Assembly: GCA_003599025.1 (NCBI GenBank)
Contig: QZIL01000021.1
Coordinates: 3,965 to 67,964 of the forward strand
Direction of reading: 5' to 3'
Length of the DNA: 64,000 nucleotides
Source: Nitrospiraceae bacterium
Lineage (GTDB): Bacteria > Nitrospirota > Thermodesulfovibrionia > UBA6902
In this document: piece by piece, positions 10,678-38,024 of the stretch
How the letters are laid out: every line of letters starts with the position of its first letter
Numbering within the stretch: the first letter of the stretch is position 1
Translations under genes and position numbers: made by a program
The notes under the pieces: generated by a model
Told to the model about the DNA's origin: nothing
The model's database searches: none
Seen by the model: only the letters and a program-made list of their open reading frames with translations

Positions 10678-11718
10678 TCAGTCTGTCATTTCCCACCTGC
10701 GACCGTGTCTCGCGCCCCCAACCATAAGCATCCCTATAATTCCAAAAATGATCGCCCCCTGTATAACAGCCTTGATACCTTCCAGCGGTTCCTGTGCATG
10801 GCTTATTACGATCGCACTTATCCCCATCGAGAAAGTCACAGAGCAAATAATAAGCACACTCCCCAGTGAATCAAACCCAACGTCCATCAATCTGTGATGG
10901 AAGTGGTCCTTACCTGCATACCTGAGCCACTCAATAATGTTGCTGACCTTTTTTTCCCTTATCCGCATTATGGTCGTGAATGTCATGTCGAATATGGGAA
11001 CCCCTAGGACCAGGAGAGGAACACTCAACCTTATAACATTGTCACTTGCCCAATGGCCGATTACTGCGATACTGGCCAGCACAAACCCCATAAGGGTGCT
11101 TCCTGCATCTCCCAGAAACATTTTTTCCTGTTTAAAATTGTGAGGCAGAAAACCCAAGCAGCTTGCCATCAGTATCAGGCTTAACATACAGATCATATCC
11201 TGCCCGGTCATATATGAAATCACGGCAAAACAGAGCGAACTTATAGCTGTAATACCGGCTGCCAATCCATCCAGCCCATCGAGGTAATTCACAGCATTGG
11301 TAATGCCCGCAATCCATATTATGGTCAGTAACACCTCTCCTGCTGTTCCAGCCGCAGTATTAGGTAAAAAATCGATACGGTAGCCTGAACAGATAATGAT
11401 AAGGGACGCAGCCAGCTGGCCTGCCAGCCTGATGCTGCAGGATAGCCCCTTTTTATCGTCAATAATTCCCATGATAAATATTATCCCCGCGCCTGCTATC
11501 AGGGGGAGAAAGTAATGAAAGGATGTCAGATTAAACAGGTGGCCTGATACCAGCCCGGCAAAAATTGCGGCACCTCCCAGAAGCGGCACCGGATGCTTGT
11601 GCGTCTTTCTGTGATCGGGGTTATCCAGGAAGTTGTATCTTAATGCAATTTTTCTAATTAGAGGTGTTAAAAGCAATACCACCACGCAGGACGTTATCAC
11701 GGGCATCAGCATATTCAC
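10678..11718 (-). CDS. Undecaprenyl-phosphate GlcNAc-1-P transferase (WecA/TagO, MraY-like)
   Basis: RKTHKHPVPLLGG, GIIDD, NAVNYLDGLDGLA, FLGDAGS, HFHHRL. Confidence 0.92.
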   Translation of the reverse strand: MNMLMPVITSCVVVLLLTPLIRKIALRYNFLDNPDHRKTHKHPVPLLGGAAIFAGLVSGHLFNLTSFHYFLPLIAGAGIIFIMGIIDDKKGLSCSIRLAGQLAASLIIICSGYRIDFLPNTAAGTAGEVLLTIIWIAGITNAVNYLDGLDGLAAGITAISSLCFAVISYMTGQDMICMLSLILMASCLGFLPHNFKQEKMFLGDAGSTLMGFVLASIAVIGHWASDNVIRLSVPLLVLGVPIFDMTFTTIMRIREKKVSNIIEWLRYAGKDHFHHRLMDVGFDSLGSVLIICSVTFSMGISAIVISHAQEPLEGIKAVIQGAIIFGIIGMLMVGGARHGRRWEMTD

Positions 11719-12358
11719 AATTATGTATCTCCTTTAGTATTCTTAAGGCCTTGAAGCCTTCTGCATATTTGACTCTTCCCTGGTATCCGCGAAAGTTGGC
11801 ACAGGACCTGGCGCTCTCAAGGATGGTAAGGTCCTTGACCCTTGTCCGGTTGATCTGCGAAGCATGTGTGCTTAGAAGGTCCAGCTTTTTGTCCAGTACA
11901 TCTCTGATATCAACAAATATATCAGGCTGAAAATTCTTGCTTGACGGCACCTCATAAAAAAGCACCTCTCTTACAAATCGCGTTGCGGAGATGGCGGCCT
12001 CTGCTGCAGTCCGGTGGTCCTGATGTGTGTCATCAAAATAGTTAATCAAAATAGAGTGCGGATCTGTTTCATTTATAACATCTTCAATTAGGGAGATTAT
12101 TGTTCTTGTTGAGGGAAGGTCCGTGTCGCTGAAATTGCCCCAGAAGACTTTTTTCACATTGATCAGCTTCGCGGATTCCTCCTGTTCTTTTCTTCTGATC
12201 CAGCGTTCTCCTCCAACATCACCCATTGTCAGTATAAGAAGATAGATGTTATATCCTTTTTCAGCGTACTTCAGCAAGGTACCTCCACAGCCGAATTCAA
12301 TATCGTCCGGATGACATCCTATGGCCAGAATATTATTGCTATTTGAGCTGTAATTCAT
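11654..12358 (-). CDS. PIG-L family deacetylase
   Basis: HPDDIEFGCGG and HQDH motifs. Confidence 0.9.
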   Translation of the reverse strand: MNYSSNSNNILAIGCHPDDIEFGCGGTLLKYAEKGYNIYLLILTMGDVGGERWIRRKEQEESAKLINVKKVFWGNFSDTDLPSTRTIISLIEDVINETDPHSILINYFDDTHQDHRTAAEAAISATRFVREVLFYEVPSSKNFQPDIFVDIRDVLDKKLDLLSTHASQINRTRVKDLTILESARSCANFRGYQGRVKYAEGFKALRILKEIHNCEYADARDNVLRGGIAFNTSN

Positions 12359-13061
12359 GCGTTACCTCTTCTCCGATCAGAATTTGTTTGCTATACGGTC
12401 CTTCATTGAATAATAAATCCACACTTGACATGTATGGAATGAACGCACTTCCTTTTCCAGCATATTGCTGATGATATACAGGATGCTTAAACTTCTGATA
12501 GATTAATTTAATGCCTGCCCGGTCAAATTTATACTCTTCCAGGTAACCTCTGCCGCCTTCACCCGAAAGATATGCAGTGGCCTTGAATTTTTTACATATT
12601 TCTATGATGCGATCTGTTTTGGTAGCACTTATCCCAAGATTGTGCTCATAATAAAGGGGCGTCGTTATTTCAAGCTCTTTCAGAATATATTTCATCATAT
12701 CTATGTTTATATGGACTAACCGTTCCGTTTCCCTTGACAATATATCTTCAAAAAACGGGATGTAATCATTAAAATAAAGAGAGCTCTGATACCATGTTTT
12801 TATGCTGTTGAAATGTTTTTTGCGCCAGCCATTGCTGTTATCTATCAATACATCACATATTTTTTTCCTGCCTGTACCGCTGGATTGAACAGGCACTGTC
12901 AGCCACATCCATCCATCTTTTGTCCTGATTTTGTTTCTGTTCTGGAACTCTCTCTCTTTATACTGGACCTGGTCCAGAAAGACAAAGCAGTCGCTTTTGG
13001 CGATTTTGTCGAACAATCCCAACCATGGCATGTACTGAGGCTGATGCACTGATAAAATCAT
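12339..13061 (-). CDS. WbqC-like protein
   Basis: HQPQYMPWLG, QNRNKI, YLSGEGG, SSVDLLFN. Confidence 0.9.
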   Translation of the reverse strand: MILSVHQPQYMPWLGLFDKIAKSDCFVFLDQVQYKEREFQNRNKIRTKDGWMWLTVPVQSSGTGRKKICDVLIDNSNGWRKKHFNSIKTWYQSSLYFNDYIPFFEDILSRETERLVHINIDMMKYILKELEITTPLYYEHNLGISATKTDRIIEICKKFKATAYLSGEGGRGYLEEYKFDRAGIKLIYQKFKHPVYHQQYAGKGSAFIPYMSSVDLLFNEGPYSKQILIGEEVTHELQLK

Positions 13062-13361
13062 TTTTTATTTACCTCCAGCAATGAAAATACATAAAGATAA
13101 ATATTATCATCCTGAGATAAGTGTCTCATAATTGGTCTACTCCCCCTCTGATATTGATAAATCAACTTATGACCTGCCTATAGAAAAGCTAATCGGATTT
13201 GTTTAGATAAAATTAATAGGGGGATACTACCGAGCTACAATGGGGGATTGAACTATTGATATGCTTGAAATGGGGAATTTCATTAATACGAATCAAAACT
13301 TGATCCTGGGATCGAGTTTGTTATGGATGGTTATAGTATTTATAAATCATCAACCATTGAC

Positions 13362-13445
13362 TGTCATGCCCGAAGTCCTTAATCGGGCATCCAGTATCTA
13401 TTAAAAAGACTCTGGATTCCCGCTCAACAGACTGCGGGAATGACA
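13362..13445. repeat. dRS3-like palindromic element (GTCATTCCCG...CGGGAATGAC family)
   Basis: tgtcatgcccga...tcgggcatccag...ctggattcccgc...gcgggaatgaca. Confidence 0.75.
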
Positions 13446-13489
13446 CCTCTGATGTGTATAGCCTATTATGAGATTGTTAATTATTGCTG

Positions 13490-14644
13490 TCATCTGCACA
13501 CCGATTCATATAAATCAGAAAAGCTTGCCACCATTCTCGATGCACTGAATTTATCGTCTGCCCAGAACCTTGCCATCTCACCCATTCTTTGCCTTTTGTC
13601 ATTGTCTTCTATTAACGATATCAATGCCCGGGCCAGCCCGTCTGCATCACCGGGGGGGACCAGTATTCCGGTTTCCATGTCCTTTACTATCTCAGGTATT
13701 CCTCCAACCTTTGTTGCAACAACCGGTATGCCGCAGGCACCTGCCTCAATCAATGTCCTGCCGACTGCCTCATTAAGCGATGGCAATACCAGAATATCCA
13801 GACCCGGCAGTATTTCCGGGATGTCCTCTCTCCAGCCGGTAAAAGTGACGCGGTCGGATATTTTCAGCTCCCTGCACCTCGATTCCAGTTTGTACCTTAA
13901 CGAACCTTCCCCGACCACCAGAAACTCTGCCTGAGGGCACTTCTCTGCCACAGAGACTGCGGCCTCAATAAAGTACCCCGGTCCCTTTATCTGCTCCAGC
14001 CTTCCTACCATTCCGACCAGAACCGAACCCGACTTAATGCCTAATTTATCACGCCTGCCATTTTTATCAGCCTTTACATTCCTGTAAAGCTCCAGTTCGA
14101 GTCCGCTGTTGATAATATCGACTTTTTCAGGCCGCGCCACATTATAGGAAGACAGGTCTTTTTTCTCCAGGTCCGTGAGAGCGGTTATCCTGTCAGTAAA
14201 ATGTGTAAGAAACCGTTCAGCCATAATTACTAATTTGCTCTTTGCAGGCCCGAAATACCCATAAAAGTTATGGCCGTGTGAAGTGTGAATTACACCCGCC
14301 CTTCCTGCAAGCCGGGCAGCGATCCTTCCTAGCGCTCCCGCCTTTGCAGTATGAGTGTGTACAATATCAAACTTCTCCTTCCTGAATAAACGATAGAGTC
14401 TGAATAATGCGATGATATCATCTAAAGGTTTCACATCTCTCTGGAGTTGAGGGACGGTTATGACCCTGTTTTTAAATTCGGTAAGAAAATTTTCAGTCAT
14501 TGAAGACGGGTTTTTTGAAGGCCCTGTTATTAAGGTTATATCAAACCTGTCAGGGTCAAGGGATTTGCACACCAGCCTGATTATGTCCGGTGATCCGCCC
14601 CAGTCAAGGCGTGTAATTACCTGTGCGATTTTAATTTTTTTCAT
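13490..14644 (-). CDS. GT4 (GT-B) glycosyltransferase
   Basis: HTHTAKAG, VGRLEQIKG, EAVGRTLIEAGACG. Confidence 0.92.
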   Translation of the reverse strand: MKKIKIAQVITRLDWGGSPDIIRLVCKSLDPDRFDITLITGPSKNPSSMTENFLTEFKNRVITVPQLQRDVKPLDDIIALFRLYRLFRKEKFDIVHTHTAKAGALGRIAARLAGRAGVIHTSHGHNFYGYFGPAKSKLVIMAERFLTHFTDRITALTDLEKKDLSSYNVARPEKVDIINSGLELELYRNVKADKNGRRDKLGIKSGSVLVGMVGRLEQIKGPGYFIEAAVSVAEKCPQAEFLVVGEGSLRYKLESRCRELKISDRVTFTGWREDIPEILPGLDILVLPSLNEAVGRTLIEAGACGIPVVATKVGGIPEIVKDMETGILVPPGDADGLARALISLIEDNDKRQRMGEMARFWADDKFSASRMVASFSDLYESVCR

Positions 14645-14654
14645 ATATGGCTTA

Positions 14655-14868
14655 CCTTACAGTTTCATTACATTACTCATATGAGGCATGCGGTTTTGAC
14701 GGAAAAGCTTTACCTGCGATACCTTAGCGAGATTTATTAACGCACAAATAATGTCTTTCCGGACTTCACCATGCGTTACGTCCTGCCGTTAATATTTATT
14801 CCCAATATCTCATCGCATTGTAAAGGTTTTACGGCAAGACCGCTTGACTGATTTATGCAACATTAAGG
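14655..14868. mobile_element. 214-bp MITE-like element, copy 1
   Basis: Imperfect terminal IRs (CCTTACAGTTTCATTA / TTATGCAACATTAAGG), TTA on both flanks and a long internal IR. Same length as, and homologous to, 35499-35712. Confidence 0.7.
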
Positions 14869-14953
14869 TTAACATTATTAGCAAGAAGGGAAGCCTGGAG
14901 TATGTCTTCCACTTGACCCCTCTACTCCTTGACTCCTGCCTATTGACCCTCAG

Positions 14954-16111
14954 TTAATACCTGTACAATTCCGTACATCTTACACATGCGGGAAGCATTC
15001 TGTTTTCCCGCACAGTGCTGCGAAACCTGACCGCTTTTTCACTGTTCCACACTTCAGCAAAACTTTCCGCCCTCACATTCCCGAATGAGTAATCGAAGTT
15101 CAGGCATGGTCTCAGTTCTCCGTCAGGGAATATATATCCTGTCATCCATGGACTTACACATCTGCCCTGTCCATTTGACGGGGCATATGAGGGATTAAGG
15201 TAATAATCATTAAGCTGCTCCTTCGAAAAATTGGGATACATGTCTATAGGGAAGTCCGGTTTGCTTCTGGAGATGTCCTTAATCTTTGCATGCAGTGCTT
15301 CAGGATCAACTTGCGGCTCACAAACAAAGCCCTCCCAGTTTAAGGAAGAACAGTCAAGCATCCGGTCAAACTCAAGCTGCTTCTCCATTGTGTCCCTGTC
15401 AAGAAAAATAAGATTGTGAAAGGTAAGGGAGTTTGCCCTGATTTCCTCTGCCACGGTCACCATCTGTTCAAGATGCCGATAATTGTGCCGGTTTATAGTG
15501 CACTGCAGATTAATCAGGGGGGTTTTTGTCTTCATCTTTTCTTTCAGGTCTGTTACCTCTTTAAGGCCGTCCATAATCCTGCTGTACAGACCGGGCACCC
15601 CGCGTATTTCATCATGAAGCTCCATCCCCCCGTCAACCGACACATTGAGTTCATCCAGCCCGCTCTCAACCAGCCCATGTCCATACCTGGATAGCATTGA
15701 CCCGTTTGTAATCATCAGGCAGTGAAGTTCTTTTTTCTTAATATATCCTATCAGCTCATGGGCATGGCGATGCAGAAGCGGCTCTCCCCCGAACAGGGTA
15801 ATATTAGGCCTGAAAGACGCAATGTCATCAATGATTTTTTTCATGTCTTCAACCGGCATATCAGCAGTCCTGTCCCCTGCGGGTTTATTTCTTGTGACAC
15901 CCTGGTCCCCCCACTGTCCGCACATCCTGCAGCGCAGGTTGCATCGATGAGTCAAAAACAGGGTGACAGCTTCAGGCAGCCCCGCCTCTCCATTGCCGGC
16001 ATAATATGCGTAATATGCCTTTGAACGTTTTGCCGCTACCTTACCTGCATATACAGGCTGGTTAAATATCTTGCCCAGAAATCTTCTGGAATTTCTCCAC
16101 GGGATTTGCAT
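14954..16111 (-). CDS. Radical SAM protein with SPASM/twitch domain (in the polysaccharide locus)
   Basis: CNLRCRMC, GGEPLL; C-terminal CVSPW..PC..CVRC. Confidence 0.9.
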   Translation of the reverse strand: MQIPWRNSRRFLGKIFNQPVYAGKVAAKRSKAYYAYYAGNGEAGLPEAVTLFLTHRCNLRCRMCGQWGDQGVTRNKPAGDRTADMPVEDMKKIIDDIASFRPNITLFGGEPLLHRHAHELIGYIKKKELHCLMITNGSMLSRYGHGLVESGLDELNVSVDGGMELHDEIRGVPGLYSRIMDGLKEVTDLKEKMKTKTPLINLQCTINRHNYRHLEQMVTVAEEIRANSLTFHNLIFLDRDTMEKQLEFDRMLDCSSLNWEGFVCEPQVDPEALHAKIKDISRSKPDFPIDMYPNFSKEQLNDYYLNPSYAPSNGQGRCVSPWMTGYIFPDGELRPCLNFDYSFGNVRAESFAEVWNSEKAVRFRSTVRENRMLPACVRCTELYRY

Positions 16112-17306
16112 GTTCAGTTCCTTTTATCTGTTTTGTAGAAGTAACCAGTCCGATTAATCTTCTTATGTCTTTTCCGGACAGCATGGAGTGAACCGGCAAT
16201 GCTATGAGGTGATCGGCAAGATGCACGGCATTCGGAAAGGCATCCTTTTCATAGCCGAGATCATAGACGTGGTGCAAAGGATTTACATCCATGCTGGCGC
16301 TTTGTATCCCTGCCTGTTTAAGGGCAGCCTCGATCCTCTTCTTCCGGTCCATGTCTTTCACCATGATCGGAAGGCGGTTAAAGGAAGGTTCCATTGTTTC
16401 CCTTATTTCAGGAAGAACTATTCCCCTGTCATCTCTTAATGTGTTCATAATAGTTGCAGCACTATAATGCCGATCCAGGACTGATTGATTAAACCTCTTT
16501 AGAAGTGAGGCCCCTAATCCAGCCTGAACAGGCGTATACTTAAAAACCGGGAAGTCATCAGGATATGTCTGATTTTTTGACGGACCCATAAACGGACAGG
16601 CAATGGTATAAAAAAGCGGCCTGAATAACATCGCCAGCACTATAAATTTAACAAAGAGAGAACACTCCTGAATAAATCCGGCGTCCTTGAAACCGCCAAG
16701 GGTTTTCTCGATGTCGTCTCTCAGTCTGTCTGAATTTACAATTAAGGCCCCTCCTCCGTAAGTAGGCAGGTGCTTCCCCCTGTTAAAGCTGAATATGGCG
16801 GCATCGGCAAAACTGCCGGTCAGCCGTCCGTCCACTTTTACGCCCATCGCCTGGGCACAATCCTCAACAAGAAAAACATCTTCAGGCAAATCATCCTTTA
16901 TCTTCGCTATGTCACCAACAGGCATGCCGAACATGTGAACACAGACAACGCACAGGGTGTCGGATGTAACCGCTTCCCGCACGGTGTTAGCTGTCATGTT
17001 AAATTCCTTTCCCGATATGTCGCACAGCACCGGCTTGAGGCCGGCCTTCCTTATGGCAACAACAAGGCACCTTGCAGCATGGGCCGGAATGATCACCTCT
17101 CGCTTCAGAGATTTCGTTTTCAGAGACTGAAGAATGGTGTAAAAGGCTGCTGTACCTGAGTTGACGAGATATATTCGTCCTGATGGAATGAATGAAGAAA
17201 GGGTGGCCCCGAACCTTTCCCTGCTATTTCCTGATAAAAAATACAGCAGGCCGGAAACCATATCAGACAGGGTTATCCTGTAACCTATGACAGGTATCTT
17301 CAGCAT
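16062..17306 (-). CDS. DegT/DnrJ/EryC1/StrS PLP-dependent sugar aminotransferase
   Basis: NSGTAA, VEDCAQ, FSFNRGKHLPTYGGG (PLP lysine), LPVH. Confidence 0.88.
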   Translation of the reverse strand: MLKIPVIGYRITLSDMVSGLLYFLSGNSRERFGATLSSFIPSGRIYLVNSGTAAFYTILQSLKTKSLKREVIIPAHAARCLVVAIRKAGLKPVLCDISGKEFNMTANTVREAVTSDTLCVVCVHMFGMPVGDIAKIKDDLPEDVFLVEDCAQAMGVKVDGRLTGSFADAAIFSFNRGKHLPTYGGGALIVNSDRLRDDIEKTLGGFKDAGFIQECSLFVKFIVLAMLFRPLFYTIACPFMGPSKNQTYPDDFPVFKYTPVQAGLGASLLKRFNQSVLDRHYSAATIMNTLRDDRGIVLPEIRETMEPSFNRLPIMVKDMDRKKRIEAALKQAGIQSASMDVNPLHHVYDLGYEKDAFPNAVHLADHLIALPVHSMLSGKDIRRLIGLVTSTKQIKGTEHANPVEKFQKISGQDI

Positions 17307-19122: not shown

Positions 19123-19128
19123 CTGAAA

Positions 19129-20277: not shown

Positions 20278-20334
20278 TTGTAAATATCGCAAGTCAGACA
20301 AAGGAGGCCGCAGCAAAGGTTTTCATAACATTCA

Positions 20335-22588: not shown

Positions 22589-22622
22589 CAGTATGCGAAT
22601 TTCCTCATGTGAAGCATGCTAT

Positions 22623-24244: not shown

Positions 24245-24245
24245 G

Positions 24246-29737: not shown

Positions 29738-29825
29738 AGAAAGTCACTCCTCTGTTTTATGAATGCAACATTTAGGATCGTTAACTTATTGCTACCTGTA
29801 AAAGTGATGTCCTGCCTTCATGGTC

Positions 29826-29897
29826 TGTCATTCCGGGCTTGACCCGGAATCCAGAAGAAGACTGGATTCCTCCCGATGCAACAGGACGGGAATGACA
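29826..29897. repeat. dRS3-like palindromic element between wza and wzc
   Basis: tgtcattccgggcttgacccggaatccag...ctggattcc...gggaatgaca. Confidence 0.75.
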
Positions 29898-29943
29898 CTG
29901 CGTGGGACATTTCTTCTGCGTCATTCAATAGCTCCGTCAAACC

Positions 29944-30978: not shown

Positions 30979-30984
30979 TCTTTA

Positions 30985-31812
30985 TTAATAGTGAACCAGG
31001 CTGCCTTCCTTTTTTGCCTTTCTAACAGCATATGAAAAGGTCATGACCCCGACAGGCAGAAAGACTGCCGTAAAGAGAGCGAGTGCCCCTATATGCGGGA
31101 CAAGATCCGAAAAAGAGCTCCCTGCCAGAAGCGCGCCCCTGAGCCCGTTTAATGTATGAGTGATCGGCAGAAACATCGCAATGTCCTGGAGGAAATCCGG
31201 CAGAACAGCGACCGGATAATATACCCCGCCAAGGAGGCTGGAGGCTGTAAGGAACACCCAGGTCACAGGATCACCCTTTTTAAAAATCATGATGACGGCT
31301 GCAGATATAATGCCCAGACTGCCCGAGCTTGTTAAGGTCAGGATGAGAATAATCAGTGCAGCGGACAGTTCATTTAATTTCAGATTCACCTTGAAAATTA
31401 ATATCCCTATTATCAGGTACAGAAATATGTCAGCAGTTGCCAGAAGGAATTTCCATAGCGCCTGGCTTACAAGCATTATGGAGAGCCTCGTAGGAGTGAG
31501 CAGGATTGCTTCGAGTGTTCCGGTTATCTGTTCATTTCGTATCGCGTTTGCAAAGCTGCTCAGGCCTGATGAAAGGTAGCCGGAAAAAGCGATGCCGATC
31601 AATACAAAAGGGAAATATTCCCCTCCATATGCCTCCAGATAAGGACTCACTTTATAACCAAATGTTCTGGAAATAAAGAAGAACGTGAGCACAGTAAGAA
31701 CAATGCCTGAAAGATTGAAGAAAAAGAATAAACGGTAACTGGTATCTATAAGGAAGTCACGTTTTATGAAGGCATACGCCCTACGCAGAAACATAAGGTC
31801 CTTCCCTTTCAC
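30985..31812 (-). CDS. ABC-2 type exporter permease
   Basis: EQITGTLEAILLTP, GVYYPVAVLP, PITH. Confidence 0.9.
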   Translation of the reverse strand: MKGKDLMFLRRAYAFIKRDFLIDTSYRLFFFFNLSGIVLTVLTFFFISRTFGYKVSPYLEAYGGEYFPFVLIGIAFSGYLSSGLSSFANAIRNEQITGTLEAILLTPTRLSIMLVSQALWKFLLATADIFLYLIIGILIFKVNLKLNELSAALIILILTLTSSGSLGIISAAVIMIFKKGDPVTWVFLTASSLLGGVYYPVAVLPDFLQDIAMFLPITHTLNGLRGALLAGSSFSDLVPHIGALALFTAVFLPVGVMTFSYAVRKAKKEGSLVHY

Positions 31813-32587
31813 AGATGTCTGCAGGTCCGGTTACCCTTCTGAATATCTCATACAGGTCAGCCTCTGCTGATCCGGTTTCATCCCTCAACTCTCCTAAAGT
31901 ACCCATTGCCATAATCCTGCCGTGATGCATAATTGCTATACGGTCGCATATCTCTTCTGCCTCAGCCATCTGGTGTGTAGTCATAAAGACAGTCTTTCTT
32001 CTCTTTTCCACAAGCTCTGCTTTGATAAACGTTCTTAATTTAGAGGCCGCGAGCGGGTCAAGGCTCTTTGTCGCCTCATCAAGAAAAAGTATCTGAGGAT
32101 CATTGAGCAGGCTCCGGGCAATGAGCATCCGCTGCCTGATGCCGCTTGAGCATTTCTGGAAACTGATATCAGCCTCTTTCTCTATTTCGAGCAGAGAGAG
32201 GACCTCGCCTATTTTTTCCTTTGATGATTCAGAGGACAGTCCGGAGAGGGCTGCAAAGAAATCGAGGTTTTGCCTTCCGGTAAGTCTCCAGTAAAAAGAC
32301 CTGTCATCACCGCTCACAAGACCGATGGACGCCTTGACTTTGCTCTCATAAAGAGACGTGTCATATCCGTTTACAATAATACTGCCCGACGTAGGAATTA
32401 TGAGTGTGCAGAGTAGCTTGATCAGGGTTGATTTCCCTGCCTGGTTCGGCCCGACCAGGCCGAAGAGTTCCCCCTCCCTCACGTCAAGTGCTACCCCGTC
32501 AACTGCTTTAAGGATCTCCCTTCTGCCCCATATCGGCCCCTGCCGGAAATGCTTCTTTAAATTCGATGTATGTATGGCAATATTCAT
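31781..32587 (-). CDS. ABC exporter ATP-binding protein
   Basis: GPNQAGKST, SSGIRQR, LFLDE, TTH. Confidence 0.92.
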   Translation of the reverse strand: MNIAIHTSNLKKHFRQGPIWGRREILKAVDGVALDVREGELFGLVGPNQAGKSTLIKLLCTLIIPTSGSIIVNGYDTSLYESKVKASIGLVSGDDRSFYWRLTGRQNLDFFAALSGLSSESSKEKIGEVLSLLEIEKEADISFQKCSSGIRQRMLIARSLLNDPQILFLDEATKSLDPLAASKLRTFIKAELVEKRRKTVFMTTHQMAEAEEICDRIAIMHHGRIMAMGTLGELRDETGSAEADLYEIFRRVTGPADICEREGPYVSA

Positions 32588-34254
32588 GACCTGAGTGATA
32601 CCTGTTTTGAAAAATGAAACATTACTCTTAAAGCAGTTCCTGCCCCTGCACGTATCCTTTTCACATAATCATGGACACCTGCCCTCTCACCTTCCTTTTT
32701 CTGAATCAGGGAGAGTTCGCTTTTTGAAGGGAAAAGTAATCTCCACAAAAACAGAAACCTGTCCTTTATCGACTCATTCATGCCAAGGCAGATAAGCCAC
32801 TCGCCCGTTAAAATAGGGGTGCCGCGCAATACAGAAGAAAGAAACGTGCGCTCGATAAGGCCGATCCTCCGGGGCCTCAACCTCCTGAGGACCTCCTCAG
32901 GTATATCTGCATTGAAAATCCCTGATACAAGGTACAGAGTGTAATAAACACTCTTGGAAAGATTAAAGGCAGATGCGTCCTTAACAAGCATCTCCCAGTC
33001 AATTTCTTCACCCTTTGATCTCAGGACCTCGTTAATATCGCACAGTCTTACAAGGGGATGAAAGGAATGATTCAGTGCGTGCATGCATAAGTAAATGATG
33101 TTGTGGTGAAGGGAAAAGGTCCTTATGTGCGCATTGTCCAGATTCATTGATATCGATTCATCCCACAACCTGTTCATATCAATCCTTTGCATTACATTTA
33201 AATGGAAAGGTGAGAAATTAACGATATGCCAGTGAACATGCAGTGAGACAGGAGAAACGCCATCTGACCTGTATACGATGCTGTTGCGATACTGCCCTGT
33301 TGCTACAGTGCTGAAATCCCTGATCTCAAATTCAGGTTTGAACCCGTGTCTGCGTAATGTACGGTCTGCTTTTGCAAGGTCATCTTTTCTGACAAGAAGA
33401 TCTATGTCCCCCATCGGGCGCATACCGACATCTTTATAAACCGATTGGGCCAATGCAAGCCCCTTAAAGACTATAATCTCTATCTTCTCCCTGTTAAAGG
33501 CAGCTGCAATCATTTCAAGAGAATGGAGCATCGGGATGTTCTTGCCTGAAACAGAATAATAAAAGTCCTTCAGATGGCCCCTGACATGACAGGGGGCCAC
33601 GTGCTCTATCCCTTCTATCTTGTTCAATGTCCTGTAAACTAAAGATGCCGTGTCCTCTCCCTGAAGCTGTTTCAGAAAATAGTCCCAGTCAACATACTGG
33701 TCAAGTATCTTACAGACAGCCATTTCACGCTCATTATCAAGGACCGTGACTGAGCAGAGGCGTATAAGCCTGTCTTCTGCCTTCATCTCCCGGCTGAACC
33801 TGTTCATTGTGCGGCATTTAATTCGGTACGCCGTCATCTTGAAAAGCTGGTAAAAGTCAAATAAAACGTTGATCGCCCTGCCGTGCCATTTATCCAGACA
33901 GATGGAAAATAATTTCTTATGGATCTTGACTACCCTGCCCAGCAATTGCCGGTCTTTGAAGGCTTCTTCTTCCGTATATGCCATGTCCGCCTTGGGCACA
34001 AGTATGACTTCCCCATGCTGAACTGTTTTTCTTACTAGCCTATGAAGAATGAGTGCGGAGTTTCTTTCAAACAGGATTATGTCCCCCGGCTCCACTTCTG
34101 ATGCACTGCTTTTTTGTACTACAACCCGGTCCATAGGATTTATAATTGGCTGCATGCTGCCGGTAGCTGTGTGGAAAGACCATTCCTTTACGTTCAAGAC
34201 TGATTCCTTTATATAGTCAACGCAGAATAATCCGGCTTTTTCTTCAATATCCAT
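32584..34254 (-). CDS. Fusion of an S24/S26-like peptidase and a nucleotidyltransferase (NTP_transf_5-like)
   Basis: N-terminal TGSMQP...PGDIILF...LHRL; C-terminal FKGLALA...RPMGDIDLLV...HVHW...LCD. Confidence 0.82.
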   Translation of the reverse strand: MDIEEKAGLFCVDYIKESVLNVKEWSFHTATGSMQPIINPMDRVVVQKSSASEVEPGDIILFERNSALILHRLVRKTVQHGEVILVPKADMAYTEEEAFKDRQLLGRVVKIHKKLFSICLDKWHGRAINVLFDFYQLFKMTAYRIKCRTMNRFSREMKAEDRLIRLCSVTVLDNEREMAVCKILDQYVDWDYFLKQLQGEDTASLVYRTLNKIEGIEHVAPCHVRGHLKDFYYSVSGKNIPMLHSLEMIAAAFNREKIEIIVFKGLALAQSVYKDVGMRPMGDIDLLVRKDDLAKADRTLRRHGFKPEFEIRDFSTVATGQYRNSIVYRSDGVSPVSLHVHWHIVNFSPFHLNVMQRIDMNRLWDESISMNLDNAHIRTFSLHHNIIYLCMHALNHSFHPLVRLCDINEVLRSKGEEIDWEMLVKDASAFNLSKSVYYTLYLVSGIFNADIPEEVLRRLRPRRIGLIERTFLSSVLRGTPILTGEWLICLGMNESIKDRFLFLWRLLFPSKSELSLIQKKEGERAGVHDYVKRIRAGAGTALRVMFHFSKQVSLRS

Positions 34255-34262
34255 GTCACATT

Positions 34263-34307
34263 AACCTCCTCCCCTTACCAAGGGGGGGCTGGGGGGGTCC
34301 CTCCTTC
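34263..34307. repeat. GC-rich palindromic element directly after the precursor stop
   Basis: ccccttaccaagggg hairpin followed by ctggggggg. It includes the GGAGG RBS of the next gene. Confidence 0.65.
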
Positions 34308-34454
34308 CTAAGCCATCAGTTTTGTACAGGGAACCGCCTTCATACATACTCTCGGAGCGATACGTGAGGAATTGCATACCACTGACAATACTTCAATCTT
34401 CTTCTCATATACGATCTCAGGCTTTTTATATGCTTTTTTCTTCTCTTCCTTCAT
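34308..34454 (-). CDS. 48-aa putative RiPP precursor peptide (not in the ORF track)
   Basis: MKEEKKKAYKKPEIVYEKKIEVLSVVCNSSRIAPRVCMKAVPCTKLMA*. The ATG lies 1 nt after the rSAM stop, with a GAGGTG RBS. It has a YxxP leader motif and Cys27/37/43. Confidence 0.85.
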   Translation of the reverse strand: MKEEKKKAYKKPEIVYEKKIEVLSVVCNSSRIAPRVCMKAVPCTKLMA

Positions 34455-34455
34455 C

Positions 34456-35484
34456 TCACACCTCTAAACATGTTCCCCTGGCAGTATTTTTCAGCGCTTT
34501 TGCAAGCATACACGCCGCACTCGACGGCCCCAGATAATCTTCATCTTCAGACACCGCCAGTCCTGGGCAGCGGCGGCAGTATGGCGCCTTATCACACGAT
34601 CTGCAGGTATGGAGTTCATCAAACTTAATCGACCTTATTCGCTGAAAATGTCCTGACTGCATAATCTGTTCAATTGATTGTTCCCGTACGTTTCCTGCGT
34701 CCTGTTTCCAGCCGACGCAGGGATAAACTTCACCATATGGGGATATCAAAAGGTTGTTCAGTCCGGCAGTACACATAAATGTGTCGTCATTAACAGACTC
34801 CAATGGCTCAAAAGAAGCGGCCCTGTCGTCCTCCCTGAATATTTTAGTCATACCATCGGTATCGAGTCTGTAACGCAACGTGTCCCTTGAACCGTCATCT
34901 TTCGGTACAACGGTCATGTCATATACGAAATCCGAGTCGAGTTCATGGGACAGCTTTGTTAAAGCACCCAGCTGGTCTGCATTCTGATTCATCAGGAGGC
35001 TTTTAACTACTCTTTTTACCCCTCTTTGACCAAGCAGCTGAAAAGCCCTCATGGTCTTCTTAAAGGAACCTTTCGTGCCGGTAATACTGTCATGTATTTC
35101 AGGGTCAGCAGCGTATACGCTCATCTCTACCGACAGGGGATTGAGTTGCTTTATCTCATCAGCCATTTCACTGCTGATAAACGTGCCGTTTGTTAACAGC
35201 CTCAATGCAAACCCTTTGCTGCGGCTATAACGCGCAATTGTGAAAAAATCCTTTCTAGTTAAAATCTCACCGCCGCTGAATGTTATATACAGGGACTGAA
35301 GGGCTGCCAGTTCATCAATAACAGACATGATCTCTTCTGTGGTTAGCTCTTTTTTATCATCCCTGCGGACGCAGTAGCAGTGGCTGCAGGCCATGTTGCA
35401 TCTGTGTGTAAGCTCCCAATGTACAATAAAGGGGATGTTCCTCTCCATTGTCTTTTTTATAATGTCGTTGTAATGGTCCTTCAT
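34456..35484 (-). CDS. Radical SAM/SPASM peptide-maturase-like protein
   Basis: CNMACSHC, SGGE; full SPASM pattern CTAG..YPC..CRSC..YCRRCPG..C. Confidence 0.92.
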   Translation of the reverse strand: MKDHYNDIIKKTMERNIPFIVHWELTHRCNMACSHCYCVRRDDKKELTTEEIMSVIDELAALQSLYITFSGGEILTRKDFFTIARYSRSKGFALRLLTNGTFISSEMADEIKQLNPLSVEMSVYAADPEIHDSITGTKGSFKKTMRAFQLLGQRGVKRVVKSLLMNQNADQLGALTKLSHELDSDFVYDMTVVPKDDGSRDTLRYRLDTDGMTKIFREDDRAASFEPLESVNDDTFMCTAGLNNLLISPYGEVYPCVGWKQDAGNVREQSIEQIMQSGHFQRIRSIKFDELHTCRSCDKAPYCRRCPGLAVSEDEDYLGPSSAACMLAKALKNTARGTCLEV

Positions 35485-35498
35485 ATTGTCCTTCTTTA

Positions 35499-35712
35499 CC
35501 TTTCGGTTACATTAAAATGTGTATAGCGGGCCGGGTAGACTTGCAGCAAAAGCTTTACCATCGATACCTCAGAGAAGCTTTTTCAAGGCATATCTGCGTT
35601 TTTCGTAATTCCACCATGTGTTACGTCCTGCTATACTCACTAATTCCAATGTCCTATCGCATTTGTAAAGGTTTTGCTGCATGTCCACCCGCCGCTTTGT
35701 ACATAATCAAGG
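35499..35712. mobile_element. 214-bp MITE-like element, copy 2 (between the PqqD and rSAM genes)
   Basis: Shares aaaagctttacc, cgatacct, ccatg.gttacgtcctgc, atcgcatt and gtaaaggtttt with copy 1. CC...GG ends and the same length. Confidence 0.7.
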
Positions 35713-35718
35713 TTTAGT

Positions 35719-36021
35719 TTAAGTAAGGGCCTCTTCCTTCGGGTGTTCAAGATATATGAGCATGTCTCTCGCGTACAGATCATTAATAAATTCTCTCGTG
35801 TCGTTCAGCGCGTCATCATAAGACACGTCAAATTCCTCTGAAATGACCAAAGCGATCCGGTCTGTTCTGAGGTCCCCGTTTAAAAGCTCCCATATCCGCG
35901 AACCTGTCCCGTTCAGGACCATCACCTTGTTCTCCTGAGGTGAAATAATTACCGCTTCGTTGTCTATCACCCGTGATGCTGTTTGAGGCGACCTGTCAGG
36001 ATACATGCTGTTTAAGTCCAT
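35719..36021 (-). CDS. PqqD-family RiPP recognition element (RRE)
   Basis: EAVII...LNGTGSRIWELLNG...EEFDV...DTREFINDL, the canonical stand-alone PqqD pattern. Confidence 0.9.
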   Translation of the reverse strand: MDLNSMYPDRSPQTASRVIDNEAVIISPQENKVMVLNGTGSRIWELLNGDLRTDRIALVISEEFDVSYDDALNDTREFINDLYARDMLIYLEHPKEEALT

Positions 36022-36808
36022 CTATATGCCTCCAGAATGAATTATCTTTTGTAAAATGCATTTCATACAAGCCATATTCAACAAGAATTCTGCTGAATAT
36101 ATCAAAGAGTTTCTCAACCGGCTGCAGCTTGTTCGGAATATGTGGAACCGTTAAGATATCTGCCAGGGCCTGCGAGAGGGACAATTCTTTTATATACGTT
36201 GTGTTGTCCTGCTTCAGTGTAAATATTCCGCCAATATCATAGCCTCTGTTTTCCCTTTTGCCTATATGCATGTCCAGCCAGTGGGGGGCAGTGTAGGCCT
36301 GATATTTGCCGTTGCTTCGTTTAATGATCACCATATCATCACTTAATATGGTACAGTCGTCTGACAACGCAGACACAGTTGATTTACCTGCGCCTGAGTG
36401 GCCCATAAATATATAAACTTCATCATCCTTCAGTATCCCCGCTGCGTGCAAAACCACCGCATCTTCGTGCAGGATAAGCCTGAAGGTAAACATATTTCTC
36501 AGGAGAGTGCCGAGTCCCATTAACATGCCGCTTCTGCTTATAAGGGCCGAGCCGCAGGTAAGGTCTTTGTTAATTTTACTCTCCAGGTGATCGTCTGACA
36601 GTCTTAATTCATCGCCAGTGACCGACAGACCGGCCCAGGAGGAATTATTGACATACGGCTCATCAGTAAGCGTTATGTCCAGAGTAAGGGATGGCGGCCT
36701 GTCAGAAAGGAAAAGAGAATAATCCCTCCGGACACTGCTGATGAATTCAGAGGACTCTGATCTTAACATGATGCAAATTTCTGCAACTTCTATTTTTATC
36801 TCTTTCAT
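35996..36808 (-). CDS. HPr-kinase-like P-loop protein (ScmC/PadeK-like)
   Basis: LHAAG...GHSGAGKST...LSDD. The ATG at 36808 forms a TGATG overlap with the HD-GYP stop; the track gives 36832. Confidence 0.82.
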   Translation of the reverse strand: MKEIKIEVAEICIMLRSESSEFISSVRRDYSLFLSDRPPSLTLDITLTDEPYVNNSSWAGLSVTGDELRLSDDHLESKINKDLTCGSALISRSGMLMGLGTLLRNMFTFRLILHEDAVVLHAAGILKDDEVYIFMGHSGAGKSTVSALSDDCTILSDDMVIIKRSNGKYQAYTAPHWLDMHIGKRENRGYDIGGIFTLKQDNTTYIKELSLSQALADILTVPHIPNKLQPVEKLFDIFSRILVEYGLYEMHFTKDNSFWRHIDGLKQHVS

Positions 36809-37866
36809 CAGTCTCCGCTTTGCTTCAGACATTCCTTGATGTGAATAATGGGATAGTTCAGTAAATTAATTATGTTCTGTTCGTCCGGTTTTTTGTAATC
36901 ACTGTTTAAAAGCACATGCAGTACCGGCCTTGTTGGGTGGCCCTGATTGATTGCAGCAACCCGGCATGTTTCTCCGGTATTTAATCTGACCAGGCTTCCG
37001 ACAGGGTAGACCCCGACCATATTAATAAAAGCCTTCATTACTTTATAGTCATAGGAGTGTTTCATCTGTAATATGTTATGTACCGATTCATGGGGCATAC
37101 ATCTGTCGCGATGCGGCCGTGAATGGGTCAGGGCCTCATATGTGTCCGCAAGATGTATTATCCGGGAGTATATATTGAGGGATTCTCCTCTCAGGCCACG
37201 GGGATAGCCTGATCCGTCTATGCGTTCATGATGCTGAAGTGCGACCTGAACAGCTACTTCGGGCAATTCATCGGCCTCCTCCAGAATTCCGGCACTCATG
37301 AATGTATGGTTCTGTATTTCCCTGTATTCTTTAGAGGAAAGTTTTCCGGGCTGCATGGCCTGCTTCATATATTTCATCATTCCTATATCATGAAGAAATG
37401 CCGAGATACCGAGTTCTGTTAATCCGGTCTTGTCGTAACCTATGTCCTGCCCGATTTTAATTGATAATATACTCACATTGACTACATGGCTGCTGAGATA
37501 ATCCTGCGCGTTCCCGGACATTAGAACAGGCAGATGACTGTTATTGAGGAGCAACTGCTCGACAAGTTTCTCTACGCATAAATTTACAGGACCACACTTA
37601 ATAACTTCATTCCCGGACAACCTGTCATGGATCTCTTTTGCAAGAGCCATTGCCATATGATAAAGGTCCGAACTTTCACTTTCATTTTGTGCAGTGCTTT
37701 TCTGCTTTTCAGAAAGCTTTGAACTGAATACATCAAAGGACGTGTCGTCCAGACCACCCGGCCCGCTATATCCCTCTGCAGAAATATCGCGCTCTGCCTG
37801 TGTCTCCTGTTCTATAGCCTTATGCCTGATATAATCTCTGTGACTGCTGGCCTTCACTTCTTTCAC
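36808..37866 (-). CDS. HD-GYP c-di-GMP phosphodiesterase domain protein
   Basis: LHDIG, HHERIDGSGYPRG, ADTYEALT. Confidence 0.92.
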   Translation of the reverse strand: MKEVKASSHRDYIRHKAIEQETQAERDISAEGYSGPGGLDDTSFDVFSSKLSEKQKSTAQNESESSDLYHMAMALAKEIHDRLSGNEVIKCGPVNLCVEKLVEQLLLNNSHLPVLMSGNAQDYLSSHVVNVSILSIKIGQDIGYDKTGLTELGISAFLHDIGMMKYMKQAMQPGKLSSKEYREIQNHTFMSAGILEEADELPEVAVQVALQHHERIDGSGYPRGLRGESLNIYSRIIHLADTYEALTHSRPHRDRCMPHESVHNILQMKHSYDYKVMKAFINMVGVYPVGSLVRLNTGETCRVAAINQGHPTRPVLHVLLNSDYKKPDEQNIINLLNYPIIHIKECLKQSGD

Positions 37867-38008
37867 CCAGTCTTAAATCCGATTCCGGAGACTGCTCCGC
37901 CTTTTCAGTTACATAAATGCTTTTTGCACAATGAAACTGACAATCCCTGATTTTTTTAAATACGCTAACTGCAAATACAGTGATGAAGCCCTACAGTCAG
38001 GCAGATAG

Positions 38009-38024
38009 AGCAATTAATATGCCA
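38009..38024 (-). promoter_or_regulatory. Sigma54 (-24/-12) promoter
   Basis: The minus strand reads TGGCAT-ATTAA-TTGCT, matching TGGCAC-N5-TTGCW with exact spacing, ~140 bp upstream of the HD-GYP gene. Confidence 0.8.

Follow-up and report, generated by a model that had tools for sequence, protein, structure and literature searches.

An accessory block of approximately 27 kb in the genome of an uncultured groundwater bacterium of the Thermodesulfovibrionia (Nitrospirota) combines a peptide-modification kit with a whole slime-polysaccharide pathway, and the association of these two modules recurs among relatives, as is evident from gene content, sequence motifs, synteny and linkage across phyla. 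Since the same pairing occurs in many phyla the two products probably work together, and we consider it rather probable that peptide and polysaccharide form one functional programme, presumably that of a surface matrix or biofilm. It is this genomic association which suggests a joint action of the two.

The block is part of the window, i.e. the whole stretch of 64,000 nt analysed here, and all features described below lie on its minus strand. In agreement with the initial annotation, which had reported about 26 co-directional genes headed by an HD-GYP gene, the run from 37866 to 10678 comprises 26 genes (25 open reading frames of at least 100 aa and one of 48 aa) and the HD-GYP gene in first place is intact.

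Genes of the peptide cassette

The leading gene (36808..37866) encodes an HD-GYP protein of 352 aa, a putative cyclic-dinucleotide phosphodiesterase (Pfam HD_5, 91.8 bits, cut-off 27.2) with the motifs LHDIGM and HHERIDGSGYP; no known domain was detected in its N-terminal 120 aa or so. It is followed by the parts of a “RiPP cassette”, namely an HprK-like kinase, a PqqD recognition element, a radical SAM/SPASM (rSAM/SPASM) enzyme, a 48-aa precursor, a fusion of signal peptidase I and NTP_transf_5 and an ABC-2 exporter.

The predicted ScmC-like P-loop kinase of the HprK/PEPCK type (35996..36832, 278 aa) contains the Walker A motif GHSGAGKST. Its NCBIfam matches (ScmC, 31.1 bits; HprK_rel_A/B) are all under the cut-offs, and profile matches were obtained to the HPr kinases 1ko7 (E 1.6e-5) and 1jb1 (9e-5). 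The best folds for its AF2 model (pLDDT 90.5) were PEP carboxykinases (E 5.5e-8, TMq 0.52), which have a common fold with HprK. Profiles and model identify the protein as an HprK-like kinase at the level of superfamily and fold only. The HprK-like, signal-peptidase and Scm matches of the window are all under the curated cut-offs.

The PqqD-family recognition element (35719..36021, 100 aa; PF05402, 55.4 bits, cut-off 23.4) precedes the radical SAM/SPASM peptide maturase (34456..35484, 342 aa; Pfam and NCBIfam profiles) and the precursor peptide (34308..34454, 48 aa) with its leader motif YKKPEI and a core containing three Cys. Precursors with [YW]xxPx[LIV] leaders and Cys-rich cores are located beside such cassettes in other loci; counting duplicates, the search for homologs gave 36 rows at E<=1, and 21 rows were obtained at E<1e-3. 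The C-terminal residue of the window precursor is Ala, a C-terminal Ser being common in the family. A G/C-rich hairpin without U-run (34255..34307, dG -19.7) was found directly 3' of the precursor gene.

In structure prediction the complex of PqqD and precursor scored 0.47 as compared to 0.02 for the best of three controls, alignments of our own being used; agreement between the runs is 95% of contacts or more, with a pLDDT of at least 53 for the partner. Of 157 solved complexes 116 attain the mark applied, as do two of 215 mismatched pairs, and passes at or below 0.60 comprise only 18 of the 157 solved complexes, yet both passing mismatches. Since complexes of recognition elements with leaders have been solved, the pass may also stem from structures already known to the predictor, and the model weakly supports the idea that PqqD may bind the YxxP leader.

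The fusion protein (32584..34254, 556 aa; Pfam/NCBIfam) combines a signal-peptidase-I-like domain of the S24/SipW type with an NTP_transf_5 nucleotidyltransferase domain. Its residues 29-112 match sigpep_I_arch (E 2e-8, 34.2 bits, cut-off 51.85) and Peptidase_S24 (23.1 bits, cut-off 23.3) and contain GSMQP and LHR, which we take to be the catalytic motifs of signal peptidase. The NTP_transf_5 domain is well supported (PF14907, 174.3 bits, cut-off 31.2), D283 and D285 being invariant in the alignment. The cassette ends with a DrrA-like ABC transporter ATPase (31781..32587; Pfam/NCBIfam) and an ABC-2 permease (30985..31812), which has a 46% identical paralog in a second cassette of the genome (on contig C59).

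Genes of polysaccharide biosynthesis and export

The gap of 6 nt between permease and wza given in the initial annotation was confirmed, with the permease stop TAA at 30985-30987 and the wza ATG at 30978. The Wza-type outer-membrane polysaccharide export protein (29944..30978; Poly_export, 84.8 bits, and two SLBB domains) has the PEP-CTERM exporter as its best NCBIfam model (165 bits, under the 180-bit cut-off). Further genes are predicted to encode a Wzc-type co-polymerase with tyrosine autokinase (27797..29737; eps_fam TIGR01007, 147.4 bits, cut-off 108), a Wzy_C-family polymerase (26410-27774; 35.2 bits, cut-off 31.7) and a Wzx flippase (24901-26397; Polysacc_synt_3, 278.8 bits).

The middle part (16062..24896), which differs between genera, encodes three methyltransferases, one GT2 and four GT4 glycosyltransferases and a DegT aminotransferase (Pfam). 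A second radical SAM/SPASM protein within the sugar part (14954..16111) has a 63% identical ortholog in G018, a related genome of another genus. The run is completed by a further GT4 glycosyltransferase (13490..14644; Pfam) and, at 10678..13061, a WbqC-like protein, a PIG-L deacetylase and a WecA-type initiating phosphotransferase (Glycos_transf_4, 122.7 bits). Judged from these profiles all parts of a putative Wzx/Wzy-dependent polysaccharide locus are present, i.e. Wza, Wzc, Wzy, Wzx and the initiating phosphotransferase.

The initial annotation had noted that the window contains neither an exosortase nor a PEP-CTERM gene, and this extends to the whole contig (C4). The profile search of the genome contigs detected exosortase matches on C14 and C2 only and PEP-CTERM matches on C66, C61, C2, C7 and C1, but none on C4; the XrtA/PEP-CTERM EPS system was rejected on this basis. 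Both kinds of gene exist elsewhere in the genome.

Transcriptional organisation

The initial annotation had regarded the region as one sigma54-driven super-operon, i.e. a single transcript would start at the promoter (38009-38024), cover all 26 genes with HD-GYP as the leading one and end at the terminator (10601-10636). The promoter candidate TGGCATATTAATTGCT (38009..38024) is located 143 nt before the GTG start of the HD-GYP gene. Three sigma54-like sites with at most one mismatch were found in the window as compared to 2.19 expected, so that this count is not significant alone. Throughout the genome there are 90 such sites, 50 of them within the intergenic portion of about 13% and 35 at most 300 nt upstream of a gene on the same strand. 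Their commonest form is TGGCAT-N5-TTGCW, and TGGCATATTAATTGCT fits this enriched promoter form of the genome. The genome carries rpoN and about 25 sigma54 activator genes, none of which was detected in the window or on contig C4. The motif reported for the 5' end is present and of this type, but no counterpart was detected before the cassettes of the sister genus G012, of G025 or of the other loci examined; the contig of G018 ends before the point where the site would stand.

An intrinsic terminator (10601..10636; 17-bp hairpin with one mismatch and U-run, dG -24.5 kcal/mol) follows 41 nt after the wecA stop, as had been described, and is the sole strong terminator found. Among the 25 junctions of the run 20 are at most 34 nt long (10 of these overlap) and one measures 53 nt; the remaining four exceed 200 nt (234, 206, 309 and 428 nt). 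These four gaps are absent from the initial annotation. The PqqD-rSAM gap (35485..35718) is filled by element 1, a dispersed intercistronic repeat of about 230 nt, and a second copy occupies the 309-nt gap (14645..14953). Since 16 of the 19 genome copies are located between genes co-directional in their orientation, element 1 seems typical of operon interiors; in G018 the matching junctions measure only about 25-90 nt. The wza-wzc gap (29738..29943) contains a copy of element 2, a palindromic dispersed repeat of about 83 nt.

Based on gene order a sigma54 promoter upstream of the HD-GYP gene could read through both modules, and the single strand, the short junctions including that between permease and wza, the form of the promoter motif, the position of the terminator and the nature of two of the gaps are in line with a single transcript. 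However, the 428-nt gap (13062..13489) before wbqC contains about 270 nt of unique AT-rich DNA besides a copy of element 2 and is the best candidate for an internal promoter, and the region is rich in sigma70-like matches (47 vs 33 expected; 23 vs 16 expected). In the sister genera G012, G028 and G256 wza and the ABC pair are transcribed divergently, so that wza must have its own promoter there, and in G018, the closest ortholog, permease and wza are separated by an AT-rich spacer of 113-119 nt. A 46% identical HD-GYP ortholog heads the cassette of G012, and in G012 and G025 another gene precedes it on the same strand. In view of the inverted ABC pair, the spacer and the unconserved site the super-operon is not supported as stated; co-transcription of all 26 genes is possible but seems rather unlikely, and would be specific to this lineage.

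Linkage of cassette and polysaccharide genes in relatives

For the comparison we fetched 160 loci of NTP_transf_5 relatives, chosen by likeness to the protein of the window, so that the linkage counts are inflated by shared ancestry. Loci with at least 8 kb on both sides were regarded as well-flanked and those with Wza or Wzc within 10 kb as linked. Among the well-flanked loci, Wza or Wzc was present in the flanks of 14 of the 32 from genomes and of 7 of the 14 from metagenomes. After dereplication 20/44 loci were linked at 90% identity, 12/32 at 60% and 8/21 at 40%; a stricter definition of the EPS locus gave 19/44 and 11/32. In 201 Nitrospirota genomes there are 312 Poly_export matches, i.e. 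about 1.6 per genome (four in the genome of the window), and as a rough estimate a random 21-kb window would therefore hold one in 1-3% of cases.

The linked loci belong to nine named phyla and represent at least ten gene orders. Wza is encoded inside the cassette in three Omnitrophota loci, and in two other loci the cassette is sandwiched between Wza and Wzc. In Chloroflexota NTP_transf_5 genes are embedded alone in Wzc-Wzy-Wzx loci. An HD-GYP gene was repeatedly found beside such cassettes, and G018 shows synteny over the entire stretch between PqqD and WecA, both included, with different flanks. The co-occurrence statistics suggested in the initial annotation favour an association, and the linkage of the cassette to polysaccharide export is real and old. 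It is far above chance but not general, as more than half of the well-flanked relatives are without Wza or Wzc within 10 kb.

The cassette may alternatively provide an independent secreted peptide (antimicrobial or signal) which shares an accessory or biofilm island with the polysaccharide genes without biochemical coupling. It is self-contained with precursor, enzymes and exporter, and the EPS genes form a complete pathway of their own. Two paralogous cassettes of the same genome have no Wza or Wzc nearby, one being located between ETF and CRISPR-Cas genes (C59, the only one with a Transglut_core3 protein) and the other beside glycosyltransferases only (C40). Likewise, the Poly_export matches of two complete Nitrospirota genomes were listed in full, and their three NTP_transf_5 genes are at least 86 kb away from any wza. 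Popov et al. (2026, Nat Commun, PMC13381572) describe the role of the linear polyphosphorylated peptides (LPP) as unknown, noting only their co-localisation with capsule loci in Bacilli. On the other hand, a linkage of about 40% against the rough baseline, which is maintained in nine phyla and despite at least ten rearrangements, Wza inside the cassette and the lone NTP_transf_5 genes of Chloroflexota make a neutral neighbourhood a poor explanation, and an independent peptide seems rather unlikely.

Less likely still is that Wza, with Wzc, serves as the outer-membrane exit of the modified peptide, the ABC-2 pump handing its product to the channel of the polymer. A diderm producer of a secreted peptide needs a route across the outer membrane, and export through Wza would explain why wza so often follows the permease or NTP_transf_5: no other gene follows NTP_transf_5 directly as often (14 of 72 scored neighbours), and wza lies within the cassette in the Omnitrophota loci and has the ABC pair beside it in 5/5 genomes of the window's family with an orthologous Wzc. 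However, many linked loci carry Wzc, Wzy and Wzx without a nearby Wza, and to our knowledge no peptide route from an ABC-2 pump to Wza is known.

Putative function

The first module of the presumed common programme belongs to the LPP/SynChlorMet kind of peptide-maturation cassettes. The PqqD-type element is predicted to bind the YxxP leader of the 48-aa precursor. Cross-linking of the core with its three Cys is the probable task of the rSAM/SPASM enzyme, and phosphorylation of a Ser probably that of the HprK-like kinase. The leader is probably cleaved off by the signal-peptidase-I-like domain and the phosphate probably decorated by its fusion partner NTP_transf_5, before the ABC-2 pump would export the product. 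Each enzymatic step is proposed by analogy with LppK, which phosphorylates Ser, and LppS, which cleaves the leader (PMC13381572), as well as with PsmK and PsmN, the latter being required for the hexose on phosphoserine in pseudomycoidin (Zyubko et al. 2019, PMC6993621). The second module would provide a complete WecA-initiated, Wzx/Wzy-dependent pathway with Wzc and Wza.

As regards the nature of the coupling, which we infer, the peptide may serve as anchor, primer, matrix component or signal, as put forward in the initial annotation. In a further reading the phosphorylated and cross-linked peptide may be the acceptor on which NTP_transf_5 and the glycosyltransferases of the locus build or attach a glycan, resulting in a peptide-anchored or peptide-capped polysaccharide that would exit via the ABC-2 pump and Wza; this seems the least likely of the scenarios considered. 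If true, many uncultured phyla would build a ribosomal peptide into a bacterial exopolysaccharide as one of its structural components.

Relation to known systems

The cassette of the window, which bears an rSAM enzyme, is related both to the LPP clusters of Bacillota and to the SynChlorMet cassette. According to PMC13381572, LPP clusters consist of a signal peptidase I (SpI), a recognition element (RRE), an HprK kinase, an NTP_transf_5 protein and an exporter and are located in capsular polysaccharide loci of Bacilli; its supplementary file 2 gives an NTP_transf_5 sum of 140 around 126 SpI genes. With these clusters the window cassette shares the RRE, the HprK-like kinase, NTP_transf_5 and the location in a polysaccharide locus. 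In contrast, peptidase and transferase are fused in the window, the gene set is extended by an rSAM/SPASM enzyme and HD-GYP, the MsbA-like exporter is replaced by a DrrA-like ATPase with a separate ABC-2 permease, and the host is a diderm with Wza and Wzc. The window peptide carries YKKPEIVYEKKIEVLS, in which the published LPP leader YxxPxVLxHQxIxFETxxS is matched only at YxxPx[I], the remainder being different.

Paeninodin-type lasso peptides (PsmK/PsmN) similarly combine an HprK-like kinase and an uncharacterised NTP transferase in a RiPP with RRE, whereas the window precursor does not end in Ser. A Pfam scan of the 25 open reading frames revealed neither a macrolactam synthetase (C) nor a B2 protease domain, and a lasso peptide cluster was rejected. 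Wzx/Wzy capsule and EPS loci resemble the window in Wza, Wzc, Wzy_C, Wzx and a WecA-type initiator; in the window, the peptide cassette precedes wza. What is added to these known systems is an rSAM-bearing cassette apparently coupled to Wza/Wzc/Wzy/Wzx in diderms of nine phyla, a coupling that seems to outlast many rearrangements, and one lineage which packs both modules head to tail behind one candidate promoter. Whether such peptides belong to the matrix polysaccharide thereby becomes a directly testable question.

SynChlorMet (NCBIfam TIGR04248-TIGR04251) has been defined computationally, and our literature search found no paper on this cassette. It resembles the window in its PqqD-like ScmD, HprK-like ScmC and rSAM/SPASM ScmE/F, and differs in having two rSAM enzymes instead of one. 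A true SynChlorMet cassette was rejected, as the window proteins reached 31.1, 28.5, 92.4 and 68.1 bits for ScmC, ScmD, ScmE and ScmF (cut-offs 125, 100, 400 and 400). G012 encodes a true Scm cassette passing all four cut-offs, with HD-GYP, SpI, NTP_transf_5, the ABC pair and Wza-Wzc-Wzy as neighbours, and its separate SpI homolog passes the sigpep_I_arch cut-off (54.7 bits).

Gene content and boundaries of the locus

ORF calling in the window detected 25 ORFs of at least 100 aa on the minus strand between 37866 and 10678, which together with a 48-aa ORF account for the run of about 26 genes described in the initial annotation. Based on the Pfam and NCBIfam profiles used for gene assignment across the locus, the run starts with an HD-GYP gene, followed by the genes for a 278-aa protein that weakly matches ScmC and HprK-related models, a PqqD protein and a radical SAM/SPASM protein. 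The 48-aa ORF, starting one base past the stop of this radical SAM gene, precedes the genes encoding a 556-aa protein in which a signal-peptidase-I-like (S24) domain is fused to an NTP_transf_5 domain, an ABC ATPase and an ABC-2 permease. Genes 9 to 12 are predicted to encode Wza, Wzc, a Wzy_C protein and Wzx. They are followed by genes for two methyltransferases, a GT2 and four GT4 glycosyltransferases, one methyltransferase, DegT, a second radical SAM/SPASM protein and a further GT4, while WbqC, PIG-L and a WecA-type transferase form the 3' end, all on the minus strand. Housekeeping genes border the locus on both sides: argS is located downstream, rho and a two-component pair upstream.

Among the 25 junctions, 20 span at most 34 nt and four exceed 200 nt. 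The proposed spacing of 6 nt between the stop codon of the permease gene and the ATG of wza was confirmed, and the proposed terminator after the last gene was recovered as a hairpin with a U-run (-24.5 kcal/mol) located 41 nt past wecA. The Rfam search of the locus yielded nothing credible, its three matches (E 0.3-0.8) all belonging to eukaryotic families.

The second radical SAM/SPASM gene (14954-16111, minus strand) lies within the sugar part of the locus adjoining the DegT and methyltransferase genes, and its counterpart in G018, a related genome of another genus, shares 63% identity. Its product scored below the cut-off of all NCBIfam models.

Identity of the peptide cassette

The 278-aa protein contains a Walker A motif, and a profile built from it and 24 relatives matches HPr kinases in the PDB. 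The closest folds to its AlphaFold model (pLDDT 90.5) are PEP carboxykinases, which have a common fold with the catalytic domain of HPr kinase.

The 48-aa ORF (MKEEKKKAYKKPEIVYEKKIEVLSVVCNSSRIAPRVCMKAVPCTKLMA) carries the sequence YKKPEI, which fits the motif [Y/W]xxPx[L/V/I/F/A] described as bound by lasso and LPP (linear polyphosphorylated peptide) recognition elements (PMC13381572). At other loci the cassettes are adjoined by small ORFs homologous to this putative precursor that share its leader and have Cys-rich cores. Most of these peptides end in Ser, those of the window and G018 in Ala. The predicted complex of PqqD and precursor scored 0.47 versus 0.02 for the best of three controls, with at least 95% contact agreement between runs and a partner pLDDT of at least 53 (own alignments as input). 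Of 157 solved complexes 116 reached the mark applied, as did two of 215 mismatched pairs; a score of 0.60 or less while reaching it occurred in only 18 of the 157 solved complexes and in both passing mismatched pairs. Since complexes of RiPP recognition elements with leaders have already been solved, the pass may only reflect likeness to these, and the model lends weak support to a pairing of the PqqD-type element with the 48-aa peptide.

Directly 3' of the precursor gene a G/C-rich hairpin without U-run was detected (34255-34307, minus strand; dG -19.7 kcal/mol). It is placed like the attenuators of other RiPP operons, which raise the precursor-to-enzyme ratio.

For the fusion protein the metagenome scan retrieved no close ortholog, the best relative being 41% identical, and the protein homolog search retrieved nine nearly full-length relatives (523-566 aa, at least 94% query coverage) with 49-95% identity.

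Among described systems, the one most similar to the cassette is the Bacillota LPP cluster, which consists of a SipW-type peptidase, a recognition element, an HprK kinase, an NTP_transf_5 protein and an exporter, and which is located within capsular polysaccharide loci (Popov et al. 2026, PMC13381572). In this system LppK places phosphate on Ser3 and LppS removes the leader, and the biological role of the peptides is described as unknown (PMC13381572). In contrast to the LPP cluster, the cassette in the window additionally comprises a radical SAM/SPASM enzyme and the HD-GYP gene, its peptidase and transferase are fused and its exporter is of the ABC-2 type. In a lasso peptide, PsmN was shown to be needed for the hexose on the phosphoserine (Zyubko et al. 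2019, PMC6993621).

The cassette is furthermore a relative of the SynChlorMet cassette defined in NCBIfam. Membership was rejected because the proteins of the window fall well short of the Scm cut-offs, whereas the cassette of the sister genus (G012) passes all four of them and has the same neighbours as that of the window, namely HD-GYP, peptidase, transferase, ABC and Wza-Wzc-Wzy genes. A lasso peptide cluster was dismissed as no macrolactam synthetase or B2 protease domain occurs among the 25 ORFs, and an XrtA/PEP-CTERM exopolysaccharide system as the window's contig contains no exosortase or PEP-CTERM gene.

Our literature search retrieved no paper on the SynChlorMet cassette and no description of a radical SAM-bearing diderm cassette joined to Wza/Wzc; in the parts of PMC13381572 on which this comparison draws, co-localisation with polysaccharide genes is noted only for Bacilli. 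The head row of sheet 5 in supplementary file 2 of that paper places TIGR02380, DegT_DnrJ_EryC1, TIGR04001, WbqC, TIGR03015, Glycos_transf_4 and Radical_SAM side by side. This suggests that its wider data set includes one or more loci like the one in the window, which those parts of the paper do not discuss.

Linkage of the cassette to polysaccharide export genes

Among 60 family relatives only G018 encodes a protein closely orthologous to the fusion (55% identity). Its gene order equals that of the window over 24.7 kb from PqqD to WecA, comprising genes for PqqD, radical SAM, the peptide, the fusion, ABC and ABC-2 followed by Wza, Wzc, Wzy and Wzx, a variable glycosyltransferase region and finally methyltransferase, DegT, radical SAM, GT4, WbqC, PIG-L and WecA; argS was not found after this block. 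Orthologous Wzc proteins (48-62% identity, aligned in one or two segments) were detected in four of 40 other family genomes (G018, G012, G028 and G256), whereas the search of four genomes from the same genus (83-100% complete) detected none. The ABC pair adjoins wza in all five carriers, the source genome included, and the block thus behaves as one accessory unit. In G012 a TumE/TumA-like toxin-antitoxin pair (locus L031, 12711-13341, minus strand) is inserted in the SynChlorMet cassette between ScmF and ScmC.

Beyond the family, the best 80 of 199 metagenome loci and the best 80 of 131 genome loci of transferase relatives were sampled, and the ORFs of these 160 fetched loci were annotated with custom-built profiles. 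For S24 the first-round profile matches were used, the iterated profile having drawn in fusion proteins (from 26 to 209). Loci were regarded as well-flanked when each side spanned 8 kb or more, and the other 114 were excluded for short flanks. Wza or Wzc was detected in 14 of the 32 well-flanked genome loci and seven of the 14 metagenome loci. After pooling the 160 loci and retaining one best-flanked member per NTP_transf_5 identity cluster, the flanks contained Wza or Wzc in 20 of 44 loci at 90% identity (19 by a stricter exopolysaccharide definition), 12 of 32 at 60% (11 by the stricter definition) and 8 of 21 at 40%, counts that are inflated by shared descent since the loci were chosen by likeness to the query. 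A rough estimate from the Poly_export counts (312 matches in 201 Nitrospirota genomes and four in the source genome) gives a baseline of about 1-3% for a random 21-kb window.

The co-occurrence of cassette and exopolysaccharide genes expected from the initial annotation thus clearly exceeds this baseline (20/44 at 90% dereplication), and the 29 linked genome loci represent nine named phyla (Nitrospirota, Omnitrophota, Desulfobacterota in the wide sense, Chloroflexota, Planctomycetota, Elusimicrobiota, Actinomycetota, Acidobacteriota and WOR-3). However, over half of the well-flanked relatives have neither Wza nor Wzc within 10 kb. In G192 and G244, the two complete Nitrospirota genomes compared against their full set of Poly_export matches, the three transferase genes are at least 86 kb away from any wza.

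The linked loci differ widely in gene order. In Syntrophales NTP_transf_5 is located directly 5' of wza with the remaining cassette divergent, in Omnitrophota and G012 an inverted ABC pair lies between transferase and wza, and in Chloroflexota the transferase occurs alone within Wzc-Wzy-Wzx loci. Furthermore, wza is found within the cassette at three loci (L122, L132 and L145), and the cassette between wza and wzc at two (L061 and L143). Judged from these gene neighbourhoods, a functional pairing of LPP/Scm-type peptide cassettes with Wza/Wzc polysaccharide export is well supported, and the peptide may act together with the polysaccharide.

The source genome harbours two paralogous cassettes with no Wza or Wzc nearby. 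The first, on contig C59 (locus L007, 2955-8063), comprises PqqD, an HprK-like kinase, a Transglut_core3 protease, NTP_transf_5 and an ABC/ABC-2 pair, and is flanked by ETF and type I-E CRISPR-Cas genes. In the second, on contig C40 (locus L008, 12636-19584), NTP_transf_5 adjoins GT9 and other glycosyltransferase genes and is divergent from genes for radical SAM, HprK_rel_A-like, S24, PqqD, radical SAM, PqqD and methyltransferase proteins.

The HD-GYP gene

The first of the 26 genes, initially designated as coding for a c-di-GMP enzyme, encodes a protein retaining the HD and GYP motifs. This protein may regulate through c-di-GMP or, alternatively, may have the phosphorylated product as its substrate. 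The G012 cassette is headed by an ortholog sharing 46% identity, compared with 34% for the best paralog in the source genome. HD-GYP was present in 13 of the 44 dereplicated well-flanked loci, ten of which also carry Wza or Wzc, and in nine of the 32 non-dereplicated well-flanked genome loci, all nine with the cassette. This enrichment is modest, as HD-GYP paralogs are numerous in such genomes (15 or more tblastn matches in the source genome). The recurrence of the gene as the first of the cassette or within it is the stronger sign.

One operon or several

All four gaps of more than 200 nt contain dispersed repeats. The first element, about 230 nt long and 70-80% identical between copies, has 19 long copies in the source genome, two of them on the minus strand of the window in the PqqD-radical SAM gap (35485-35718) and in the gap between the second radical SAM gene and GT4 (about 14650-14880), and 17 elsewhere (e.g. 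C2:79154-79383 and C19:23849-24079). It is composed of three nested inverted repeats, the middle stem covarying between copies, and had no Rfam match. In 16 of the 19 cases the neighbouring genes are co-directional, and the copy shares their orientation and fills the gap almost exactly. The element is therefore typical of operon interiors. It resembles a structured RNA element that is intercistronic and orientation-locked. The second element is a palindromic REP-like repeat of about 83 nt (GTGTCATTCCCGC...GCGGGAATCCAG...) with about 60 blastn matches in the source genome and is located in the wza-wzc gap (29738-29943) and the GT4-wbqC gap (13062-13489). Besides the repeat the latter gap contains about 270 nt of unique AT-rich DNA, the best candidate place for an internal promoter. 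The junctions in G018 equivalent to the repeat-holding gaps measure only about 25-90 nt (by alignment ends).

The initial annotation regarded the locus as a single sigma54-driven super-operon. In the source genome this is a plausible local arrangement, and all genes may be on one transcript. However, the permease-wza spacer of G018 is AT-rich and 113-119 nt long, and the ABC genes diverge from wza in G012, G028 and G256, which argues that the 6-nt fusion is a local compaction. From these comparisons the single-operon arrangement is not the conserved state.

The sigma54-type site

A sigma54-type site (TGGCATATTAATTGCT; 38024-38009, minus strand) was detected 143 nt 5' of the HD-GYP start. Within the window the motif count is not significant (three matches versus 2.19 expected). 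Genome-wide, 50 of 90 such sites are intergenic, though intergenic DNA makes up roughly 13% of the genome (a fraction resting on crude ORF calls), and 35 are located at most 300 nt upstream of a same-strand gene. The genome encodes rpoN and about 25 sigma54 activators, none of the latter in the window or on its contig. The promoter proposed at the 5' end is therefore probably real, its sequence fitting the commonest form of the motif in the genome (TGGCAT-N5-TTGCW), but it does not appear to be conserved: no such motif was found upstream of HD-GYP in G012 (L031) or in another related genome, G025 (L030), and of the 46 matches in about 2 Mb of related loci three precede annotated genes and none precedes HD-GYP. 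The contig of G018, the closest ortholog, ends inside PqqD.

In G012 and G025 a gene resembling the PEP-CTERM-type ATPase (TIGR03015) precedes HD-GYP directly on the same strand, without a sigma54-type motif (L031, 17692-18522, minus strand, and L030, 7178-8005, plus strand; 240 and 220 bits, below the cut-off of 324.5). This gene links the cassette to PEP-CTERM-type exopolysaccharide gene sets, even though its surroundings contain no exosortase. A further sigma54-type site is located in the C40 paralog (C40:19046-19061, minus strand) in the gap from the transferase gene to the following glycosyltransferase gene.
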